Both the position numbers and the translations under genes were made by a program. A stretch of 64,000 nt of DNA from NCBI GenBank assembly GCA_905178155.1, contig CAJINV010000003.1, positions 9,183,979 to 9,247,978 of the forward strand. Reading direction: 5' to 3'. Under the pieces are notes generated by a model. It saw nothing but the letters and a program-made list of their open reading frames with translations. It did not search any database and was not told where the DNA came from. Shown piece by piece: positions 48,744 through 52,655 of the stretch (the first letter of the stretch is position 1; each line of letters opens with the position of its first letter). The DNA is from Amoebophrya sp. A120. Taxonomy: Eukaryota; Protista; Dinoflagellata.

Positions 48744-51700
48744 CTACAGGTACGAAGTGGATTTTGACGATCCTGAGGACCGGCTGCTCCCGCTGGCGAT
48801 CTCTTGCAGAGCAGGGGGCGGCGTCTGGGACACTTGCCGCATTGCATCGCAGAGTTCCTGGGCTAATTTCAACTTGCCCGGATCATAGTGGTTATGGGAG
48901 TGTCAGAATTGAAATCGTCAAAGTTGAAAGGATTTGTCATGCATAAAATGCAGCCCACAAAGTGCCTGTCTTGCAGAGTAGGCAAGTGAGGCAGATTGTA
49001 AGTCTGTTGAGGGGTAGCAACTGAGCTGCTAAAATAGCATGACAAGAGGCGTCTTCCTTACCCAAGCAGCATGACAAACTGGATTTCGGCTCTACTCAAA
49101 TTTGTCGCGCGCCACTTGGAAACTGGGTTACAACTGGCATCCATTTTATGCATGACAAATCATTTCAACTTTGGCGATTTCGATCCTGACAGATCCATAG
49201 TGGTCCCAACAGAAGTAGGAAATCGCGGTTCCCTTTATGCCCGCGCGTCCCGTTCGCCCAATGCGGTGCACATAGTCGTGAATCGTGTTGGGCAGGTCGT
49301 AATTCACCACATATTTTACGTTTGGAATGTCCAATCCACGCTGCGCCACGTCGGTCGCGATTAGCACCTGAAGCGAATATATATGATGCTTAGGTCACAC
49401 TTTGCTCTTCTCCTCCCGAAATGAAAAAGGAGCTAATTCAAAAATCAAAATTGCTTCGCTCCGGCGTATATTATTGCCACCCAAGAGAAACAAAGCAGCC
49501 TCGCTTCTCCTTCTCATTTGCAAGTGAGTCCGACTGCGTTTCTTGGCTTCTACACTTTAGATAGACCCTCCTTTTCCCCGCCTCAGTAGATAGAAAGCCG
49601 AGTGTACTACGTCGTTATCGTTCGTCACTACGCTCACATGAATACAGGGCGAAGTAATAGTAAAACTAAAAATTTTGAATTCGCAGGTACCTTGAACGTT
49701 CCGCTTTTGTAATCTCTAAGCATGCGCTCGCGGGACTGTTGGTCCTTGTCGCCATGGATCGCTGCGCACGGAATCCTTGCACCTCGCAGGTTGCGCTCCA
49801 TCTGGTCTGCAGTGCGCTTTGTGGCTGTGAATATCAAGACCTTGGCATCCTTGTCTATCCGACGAAGACGAGCCCCGCCCCCCGAGGCCATAGACAAAGA
49901 CGGCACATGCTCATGCACGAAACTGGTGGTAGTAGGTGAAGCTGAAGCTATAGCAATCTGCACAAGCACATAACAGCAATGCGTGAGGCTTTTTAGAGCC
50001 AGCACTTCACATCAATCTTCCTACTTTTGGGATGATGATTGCAGCAGATCGGGGAAATGCTGCTCACCTTGCCCGAAGGGGGGCTACCTCGATTCACTTT
50101 GGTATTGTCTGGGCTGTCCTTTAACTTTTCGAAAATTCCAAGCAGGTGGTCCTGTCTCTGCAGCTCCGGAATGACCTTTATTTGTATTTCATCATTTTAT
50201 ATCTATATTTATACGTGTCCATGCGTACTATCATGCTTGCGCGTGCAGCTTCATTTCTAAATATGCATCTTCAAGCAATGGCAAAGTTTGCAAAGGAAGC
50301 TGGTACTTCAACAATCTGCGTAACATCGGGATTGCATTGCAGCTCCGTGCTTCCGATCGTGACCATCGTGGGATCTTCCTTGCAAAAATCGCGGGCCATG
50401 CTCTGGATTTCTTTCGGCCAAGTGGCCGAAAACAACACCGTCTGGCGATCTGGTCTGCATTCATGAAAAACGGGTGAGGAAAAACGCGCGACTCTGGTTT
50501 GCCTCGACGACGTTGCGACTGTCACGCTCACGCACGTGCTTGGAAGTAAAAGTAAAATATAAACGCACGGGGTATATATCATTCGAAAAAAGCACAAGCA
50601 AACCAGCCAATCCTACACCAAGACGCATATGGAGTTGGAGAGACTGAGATTGAGATAGTACGCTCCTACTTTTGTTCCTGCTGACAACGACTAGGTTCCA
50701 GCTGAGTACTTCAAGTTGCCTGCATGGAGAAAGAGAGGTAGTAGAGGTCTGATATCCATGTTGCCATACTATTATAGTATGGCAACATGGATATATTTAA
50801 AATATTACCCGAACCCGAAGCAAAAGAATGCACTGAGGAAAACAGCAACGCTGCATCTTTGCGCCGATGACGTTTTGCAAATCATGCGTTCTCCGTCACC
50901 GTAGCGTCCTTTCCAGGCATAATCGCGTCTGCTTCACTATCTTGCGGATGCTCGGTTCAAAACCCATGTCGAGCATGCGATCCGCCTCATCTAGCACCAG
51001 ATATGTAACTCTTTTGAGATTGACAACTCCCGCGGAGAGGAAGTCGATTAGACGTCCCGGGGTGGCGATAACAATGTGGGCCCCGTCCCGCAGCGCCCGC
51101 GCCTGGCTATGTCGCGACCCTTGTAAAAAGTTTCAAGAAAATTAGATAGTAGAATCAGCCGCACGTAGATGTAGCAATTCTGCCTCTATAGAGTCATTGA
51201 GGTAGATGGTTCAAAAGGAAAAGGCGGAAACTCACTATAGTCAGTGGAAGACGAAGAAATACATTTTTGATTATATCAAGGAGAGAAGTCTTCATTTCTC
51301 TGCTTCCCTTTCGACCCGTCAGCGTAAATGAGCAACAAAAGAAGAAGCTAGAACAAGAGACCACACCTGACCCTCCATAACAGACTGCGGACTTGATCTT
51401 TGTGATTCCACCGAACTTCCTCGCTTCCGACTCGATTTGCTGCACCAATTCACGAGTCGGGCCCATCACGAGCGCCACCGGGCCGTCGCCGGGCTCTAAG
51501 GCGGGCTGTTGCGAGATGTGCGACAAAGCTGGTAAAAGATAACTCAACGTTTTTCCGCTTCCGGTTTGGGCAATGCCGACGGAGTCGCGGCCCTTGCTAA
51601 GGATGGGCCAAGCAAACTTCTGAATAGGACTAGGCTCCCGAAACCCCGCTTCCGTTAGCTCTTCCATCAACAGCTCGCCGAAAGTTGGTCGCATGCGTAT

Positions 51701-52655
51701 GGATGTGTCAGGATCGAAATCGTCAAAGTTGAAATAATTTGCCATGCATAAAATGGATGCCAGTTCGAACCCAGTTTCCAAGTGGCGCATGACAAATTTT
51801 GCTGGTCCCTAAATCAAGTTTGTCATGCTGTTTAGGCAAAGAAGGGTGGTTTTCTCACGCTACTTTAGCAGCTCGAGCTGTAACCCCAAACAGGCTTACA
51901 ATAGGCCTCACTTGCCTGCTCTGCAACGCACGTACCTCGGGTCATGCATTTTATGCATTACAAATTATTTCAACTTTGACGATTTCAAACCTAACGCTTT
52001 CATAATGTGCTCGAACGCTGTAATCGGTCCAGGTACGCTCCCGCGTCCGCGCAGTGTCGCTGTTGTAAAAAGCAAGTAGCGACACTCTTTACAGCATCGG
52101 TCGGGACCGGAAACAACCTAGTCCCTACACACAAGGCTGATGCGACAACTGGTCTGTTTTTATACAGCAATCACGTCCTGCTCCTGGCGTACACACAAAG
52201 AAAAACGGCCTGAAATTCTTTTTACCTGACAAATCTTCTACTAGCTGTTTATTTTCTTCCGGAGTGCGCTGTGTGACGGCCTCGTGTTCCTTGTAGAGAT
52301 CCTTCTGGAAATCGGGCATGCGCTCGACGTCCCACCGGACGTCCTGCAAAATAGCATGGTTGTCATACTTACTGTCGCCCCCAGGGACTCGCTCCGGGCG
52401 TCTCGCGCTTCCTCGAAGCCCCCCTCCACCGTGGCCGAAGCGGTGTACACCTCCACCGTATCCGGGACTAGAGGGGTCTTGGTACGCGCTGCCACCTCGA
52501 TTCTTTCCTCCAGCTGCATAAGCGTGCTGCGACGCACCCGAAAAACTTCGGAAAACTAAGTGGCACACCCGGTGTGCTGTCTTCGCTGAAACGTCTTGCC
52601 ACAAGCGTTCCCGAGTTGGCGTCAGTGACAGAGACCGAGAGCTTAAGGAAGCCAT
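48744..52655 (-). CDS. DBP2: DEAD-box RNA helicase, DBP2/DDX5-like, multi-exon
   Basis: [90 protein letters not shown]. Confidence 0.9.
48893..49199. mobile_element. Introner family B copy 2 (307 bp), TSD GTGGT
   Basis: Family B TIRs; removal gives [18 protein letters not shown]. Confidence 0.95.
51698..52004. mobile_element. Introner family B copy 3 (307 bp), inverted relative to copies 1 and 2, TSD ATGCG/ATGTG
   Basis: Family B TIRs; interior is the reverse complement of B1/B2; removal gives [14 protein letters not shown]. Confidence 0.92.

Follow-up and report, generated by a model that had tools for sequence, protein, structure and literature searches.

Can an intron of one family be removed from a transcript whichever way round it lies? 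The question is raised by a stretch of 64,000 nucleotides (nt) from the dinoflagellate Amoebophrya sp. A120 (contig CAJINV010000003.1, positions 9,183,979 to 9,247,978; hereafter the window), in which two introner elements of one family, B2 and B3, sit in opposite orientations within a single gene for a DEAD-box helicase of the DDX5/DBP2 type. It bears on a wider one, open since 2021, of how, in Amoebophrya, the more than 60% of introns that lack GT-AG borders are removed. Our comparison of these elements with their relatives in the window and in a second assembly supports a signal that lies in the inverted ends of the elements and not in the interior. The explanation toward which we lean, with slightly more confidence than doubt, is that elements with terminal inverted repeats (TIRs) occur in both orientations and that an altered spliceosome, reading only those ends, would cut them out of the pre-mRNA. 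The elements and two-way introners were already known; the new part would be orientation independence without canonical sites, together with one apparent cut register.

Opposed elements within single genes

The helicase gene and its introns, all on the minus strand, are as follows.

48750..52541, minus strand: DDX5/DBP2-type DEAD-box helicase gene, modelled part, nine exons, ends not fixed, modelled on the orthologue P0004 of Amoebophrya A25
48893..49199, minus strand: introner B2, 307 nt, TAT..ATA, with perfect repeats at 48888-48892 and 49200-49204; predicted intron 49200-48889
51698..52004, minus strand: introner B3, 307 nt, TAT..ATA, orientation opposite to B1 and B2, with repeats at 51693-51697 and 52005-52009 (one mismatch); predicted intron 52005-51694
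50454..50922, minus strand: older non-canonical intron of TAT type, 3' triplet ATG, repeat decayed, placed by alignment to the orthologue, boundaries not unique

The gene model is free of stops over 525 codons, and 350 of its 521 aligned residues (67%) are identical to P0004, the best named relative with full coverage. Conserved exons of this one gene are interrupted by both B2 and B3, each of which has TIRs of about 58 nt and a 5-nt flanking repeat, and retention of either element brings in an in-frame stop. The initial annotation had described the two interiors as reverse complements of each other, and this was borne out: once 70 nt had been cut off at both ends, B2 aligned to reverse-complemented B3 at 78% identity with a score of 147, against a score of -95 in the same orientation, where 100 shuffles gave a mean of -101 (standard deviation 11, maximum -63). 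Exact removal of B3 aligned better to P0004 than any in-frame alternative within 80 nt that began with GT, GC or GA and ended with AG (474 against 433, n = 39), and exact removal of B2 scored 377 against 352 for the best of 51 such in-frame alternatives; canonical splice alternatives around both elements were ruled out by this poorer alignment to the orthologue. The older intron of the gene also contains a near-perfect 43-nt palindrome (50752-50794).

The same arrangement recurs in other genes of the window, two of which have deposited models.

22034..32132, minus strand: gene for a 2140-amino-acid protein, deposited model GSA120T00015259001, with three GT-AG and nine TAT-type introns including B1
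27672..27971, minus strand: introner B1, orientation as B2; the element plus 5 nt (305 nt) is missing from deposited P0123
53657..61268, minus strand: Vps18 gene, deposited model GSA120T00015263001, with three GT-AG and seven TAT-type introns
60688..60949, minus strand: introner A5, inverted relative to A1-A4 and A6; 267 nt missing from deposited Vps18, P0121
60987..61238, minus strand: introner A6, 37 nt from A5 and opposite in orientation; 257 nt missing from P0121
46000..46260, minus strand: introner A4, in the orthologue of A25 protein P0122, placed by orthology
44500..44786, minus strand: A7, an older family A copy in A5 orientation, same gene as A4, found by profile (E 2.8e-14 on the minus strand)
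6550..6811, minus strand: introner A1, from interior comparison and reopened frame
34497..34761, minus strand: introner A2 in a protein kinase exon, from reopened frame and kinase match
36390..36651, minus strand: introner A3, from interior comparison and reopened frame
839..1090, minus strand: C2, a TAT..ATA element of another family with a perfect 5-nt repeat, at the 3' end of the PEPCK gene

As had been claimed initially, A5 is inverted relative to A1-A4, its interior resembling theirs only as the reverse complement (69-82% identity; against A1, a score of 160 compared with -55). A family A profile made from 76 fetched copies placed A1-A4 and A6 on the plus strand, and A5 and A7 on the minus strand, and pairs of opposite orientation within single genes number three in the window: B2/B3, A5/A6 and A4/A7. 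The assignment of the host genes to the minus strand also held for every host with protein evidence, i.e., DDX5/DBP2, Vps18, the kinase (A2) and PEPCK (C2), the strand of the A1 and A3 hosts being called from reading frame and codon score only.

The proteins deposited for Amoebophrya sp. A120 match the window at 100% in the case of P0121 (Vps18, for the exon beside A5) and at 99% in that of P0123 (the B1 host). Standard tools could not cope with the splice sites of A120, and its models were therefore derived by aligning transcripts (PMC7789003); from these transcript-based proteins A5, A6 and B1 are missing. In deposited Vps18 the gaps are of exactly 257 nt (A6 plus 5 nt) and 267 nt (A5 plus 5 nt), leaving exons of approximately 8 and 11 codons. 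For B2 and B3 removal is read from orthology only, the protein search having returned no deposited A120 protein for the helicase gene, nor one for the gene of A4 and A7. At all ten window elements a 5-nt direct repeat is present, with a mismatch in one, and taking out the element plus 5 nt reopened the minus-strand frame; a GT-AG register was available at none of the ten. An Rfam scan of the window, which included group I and group II introns, gave no match at the gathering score. It is very probable that both orientations are removed at the RNA level.

Two side observations concern these families. Just upstream of A4 on the minus strand lies a 238-nt TAT..ATG element (46506-46269), and the exon between the two would be 3 nt long in the register described below; retaining it improves the alignment to the A25 orthologue (186 against 170). 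Every one of the ten elements of families A, B and C carries a 9-nt motif on both strands, and together they account for 34 of its 70 matches in the window within 2730 bp; the motif sits mostly near position +42 and the mirror position, and is a candidate transposase-binding site common to the families.

Orientation in a second assembly

When metagenome contigs were scanned with the end of family A, 145 loci came up; every one is on a JACKZZ01 contig, and none shares a flank with the window. Among 135 paired elements, 132 had flanks, and once 11 that lacked a usable 5-nt repeat were dropped 124 were kept, of which 36 to 88 passed the cut-offs for orientation and strand, the rest being uncalled. 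The host strand was called by a codon model that was correct for all ten window elements, two of them with a margin below 2. The copies of this assembly had TAT..ATA ends in 127 of 132 cases and a perfect 5-nt repeat in 111, and a 6-nt repeat was found in 0/132.

Relative to the host strand, A1-type and A5-type orientations stood at 47:41, 28:31, 27:29 and 14:22 under four cut-offs (p 0.24-0.89), i.e., family A in this assembly is inserted approximately 50:50. A Pfam match was available for 12 of 202 flank stretches; all 12 agreed with the strand call, with orientations at 7:5. Both orientations were present in 6 of the 11 loci that held at least two called copies on one host strand, and a conserved exon of RNA polymerase Rpb1 is split by a family A copy of A5 type (L060:669-930). 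Family B copies were present at L008, L016, L037, L040, L076 and L135, and judged by the neighboring strand call four share the orientation of B2 and one, the partial copy L037, that of B3, L040 being uncalled.

The asymmetric interior of the elements would carry no strand-specific signal that is needed, because exons hold the two orientations in nearly even numbers and removal seems to apply to either one; the signal that is read is thus supported as lying in the inverted ends. The initial annotation went further, proposing that recognition depends only on symmetric features such as the stem, the ends and the direct repeat. The confinement of the signal to the inverted ends stands; the remainder does not, given that the direct repeat is dispensable, that the long stem is weak in four of 24 introns and that the apparent cut is asymmetric, as described below. 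Nor does symmetry set these introns apart from spliceosomal ones, as had been thought, two-way introners with spliceosomal sites having been published for Polarella and Aureococcus. Symmetry does not exclude the spliceosome, because inverted ends furnish each strand with an identical strand-specific signal, and the counter-case that had been offered, in which each strand carries its own signals, is equivalent to the original claim and not its opposite.

Cut register and route of removal

A perfect repeat lets the junction slide, and it is the older copies with diverged repeats that narrow it. The two deposited models contain 22 introns, six GT-AG and 16 non-canonical, and a register of -1 (a cut 1 nt before TAT and another 4 nt after the terminal triplet) fits all 16 of the latter, registers -2 and 0 fitting 14 each. 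A single, asymmetric register that follows the direction of the transcript would account for this. The 16 introns begin with TAT without exception and 13 end in ATA, and among 24 TAT introns placed in register -1 the 3' triplet was ATA in 20, ATG in three and ACA in one. An A stands at -7 in 24/24, a pyrimidine-rich run extends from -19 to -15, no base is fixed at either terminus of the intron, and a run of A occupies +12 to +14 in 15 to 18 of the 24, that of family B lying further inside. The direct repeat as a recognised feature was ruled out, and is dispensable, because three to four of its five bases differ in four of the 16 deposited non-canonical introns. In Table S4 of PMC7789003, T is second in all nine top A120 sites, a pattern that agrees with register -1; being aligner-dependent, it was not counted as evidence.

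The TAT..ATA elements are likely to be non-autonomous DNA transposons, being short and repeated, with TIRs and a target duplication of fixed length, all of them features of miniature inverted-repeat transposable elements. Under the mechanism that we propose, a transposase would insert the element regardless of strand with duplication of 5 nt, and, both ends being alike, the transcript would always read N-UAU ... U-rich ... AUA-NNNN. The 5' cut would fall 1 nt before UAU, with U at +2 and A at +3 as in a GUA donor and +1 free, and the 3' cut 4 nt after AUA, with no AG; cuts at -1 and +4 would remove one repeat copy and so restore the mRNA to the base. The terminal stem would probably help to join the ends (that it is required is a proposal only), and the invariant A at -7 is, speculatively, a candidate branch point. 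A120 retains nearly all spliceosomal proteins along with U2, U4, U5 and U6, and its U1 small nuclear RNA (snRNA) was undetected (PMC7789003).

Several points weigh against removal by a modified spliceosome reading only the ends. Involvement of a spliceosome is a proposal, and no transposase was found in the sequences covered. For B2 and B3, splicing would be deduced from orthology and from a frame that stays intact; against one of four homologues a canonical alternative for B2 scores as well as exact removal, and a restored frame by itself tells of insertion into an exon and not of splicing. The register is set by four informative introns, two of which exclude 0 and two -2, and is not pinned per orientation, B3 being compatible with -3 to 0. 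Differences between the ends are slight: the 5' triplet seems only weakly the better conserved, with p 0.23 for the 16 introns free of selection bias and p 0.023 for a set of 26 in which TAT was in part a criterion of choice, and the asymmetry of the arm motif stands at 27 versus 14 (p 0.06). In addition, the duplex kept in 20 of 24 TAT introns would suit guidance by the stem equally well.

That last possibility is the main rival, i.e., that a nuclease guided by the stem measures the paired ends and makes a staggered cut in the RNA, and a ligase joins the ends without a spliceosome, as proposed for the nonconventional introns of euglenids; we regard it as possible, if on balance doubtful. Folded as transcribed, both B2 (-129.9 kcal/mol, z -8.8) and B3 (-130.2 kcal/mol, z -8.4) form strong stems, and a terminal duplex with z at or below -2.5 is present in those 20 introns compared with 0 of 10 GT-AG introns. 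The freedom of the terminal intron bases, the undetected U1 snRNA (PMC7789003) and the 3' ATG in three of the 24, which preserves a U-G pair, speak for it as well. Set against these, z for the terminal 45 nt lies above -2 in four of the 24, the 5' TAT is invariant whereas the 3' triplet varies, and the arm mismatches of 76 family A copies, read in transcript orientation, hold no excess of G-U (44 G-U versus 65 A-C; 19 versus 39 within the first 10 nt), the trend being opposite to wobble selection. RNA-level selection on the long stem is therefore not shown, and transposition may be the main reason for which the inverted repeats persist.

The remaining alternatives are minor. Programmed excision from the DNA by a transposase in transcribed nuclei, for which orientation would be irrelevant and which, if precise, would take the element and one repeat, is quite improbable: the elements are present in two genome assemblies, even old copies, their repeats and ends decayed, are missing from the deposited models, joined inside the repeat at one asymmetric register, and the accessible text of PMC7789003 makes no mention of DNA elimination. 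Very improbable, too, is an ordinary spliceosome using GT, GC or GA with AG, found inside the inverted ends or supplied by the repeat, in a register that might vary among copies. GT does occur near the 5' end in both families, a register ending in AG is available in 38 of 76 copies on the sense strand versus 27 of 76 on the antisense, and mixed mechanisms are assigned to A120 families in a published table (PMC12130899). The two sites of a GT-AG register coincide in 5/76 on the sense strand, the same as the 5/76 of the antisense, the deposited models remove exactly the element plus 5 nt, and canonical alternatives align worse; this rival is largely refuted for GT-AG. Recruitment of splice sites from the target repeat was ruled out likewise, the target sites having no fixed base (n = 76) and GT-AG being no commoner than in the antisense control. 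Least credible of all is that the transcript gaps are template switches of reverse transcriptase, for which a hairpin with a direct repeat is a classic setting, or that inverted copies lie unspliced in dead genes, since the decayed repeats of four of the 16 introns argue against such artefacts and the hosts, Vps18 and Rpb1 among them, include a helicase gene whose exons, despite the stops that retention of B2 or B3 gives, are undamaged and share 67% identity with the orthologue.

Should the signal lie in the ends, orientation independence would confine it to some 30 to 60 terminal bases, and the single register, if correct, would put one rule in place of hundreds of apparent dinucleotide classes and correct gene annotation. 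A bolder extension, which we hold tentatively and at somewhat less than even confidence, is that tens of thousands of A120 introns obey one orientation-blind rule, N-UAU ... AUA-NNNN with end bases free, under which any insertion could be removed tracelessly, by a spliceosome lacking U1 (branch at A-7, counting to the 3' cut) or by a new RNA-cutting machine, making transposons harmless genome-wide. Orientation independence and the single register yield exact predictions for experiments with lariats and minigenes, which makes the question of Amoebophrya splicing directly testable.

Other features of the window touch these matters less closely. The A25 orthologues P0004, P0122 and P0125 carry neighboring gene numbers on a contig of equal length, and the block 22034-52541 is therefore syntenic. 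An inverted pair of 120 nt (92%; 36887-37006 and 38038-38153), 1 kb apart with the same perfect 44-nt palindrome in each arm, is a candidate for another element type or for the ends of a larger element. The end of the window (63561-63997) holds two pairs of tandem-like repeats of about 108 nt, and a very large gene with a phosphofructokinase domain (8071-15800, minus strand, with an open frame of 1615 codons) lies near the PEPCK exons.

Comparison with known systems

The closest precedent comes from the same organism. Farhat et al. (2021, PMC7789003) described A120 introner elements, in 29,850 copies, with a TAT start, seven bases, a run of A and repeats of 3 to 5 nt, and the legend to their Fig. 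3 calls the intron borders variable or unknown. The window elements share with these the TAT, seven bases and A run (family A), 5-bp repeats, a length of about 250-310 nt and the lack of common splice dinucleotides. Here, unlike in that account, whose accessible text does not mention the orientation of the elements, orientation was counted and a single register proposed. Many A120 families have since been classed as TIR DNA elements, with mixed splice mechanisms listed (Gozashti et al. 2025, PMC12130899). Neither an even orientation ratio nor a single register for Amoebophrya was found in the literature searched, mostly without subscription papers, and figure logos of PMC7789003 (Fig. 3, S19-S25) may already show the register.

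Among transposons, IS3EU/GingerRoot elements (PMC10045372) have the same TA..TA termini, with duplications that are usually of 6 bp, in contrast to the 5 bp of A120 (111/132, with 6 bp in 0/132). The nonconventional introns of euglenids (PMC11282704) resemble the A120 elements in their terminal inverted repeats, repeat-like junctions and non-canonical ends; they have other conserved motifs and are released as circles by an unknown route.

Introners of Polarella glacialis, and by citation those of Aureococcus anophagefferens, form introns in either orientation (Roy et al., bioRxiv 10.1101/2020.10.14.339549), and like those of A120 they are transposon-derived with target duplications. They differ in using GT, GC or GA with AG and in needing a fitting target, and their classes 6, 8 and 10 are biased in orientation; in A120 the target is free, the sites are non-canonical and no orientation bias was seen. 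A transposon-like origin and ends other than GT/AG are shared with introns of Fritillaria borealis (PMC13326754; PMC11282704), which are removed by a changed spliceosome with a YAY triplet at both borders. There the termini AG/AC and AG/AT are preferred and the triplet is at the cut, whereas in A120 the terminal positions are unconstrained and the triplets are set 1 and 4 nt in from the borders. Fritillaria thus demonstrates that non-GT/AG ends are within reach of a spliceosome (PMC13326754), and A120 would add that splicing can be permissive enough for a transposon to turn into an intron at any site, whichever way round it lies.

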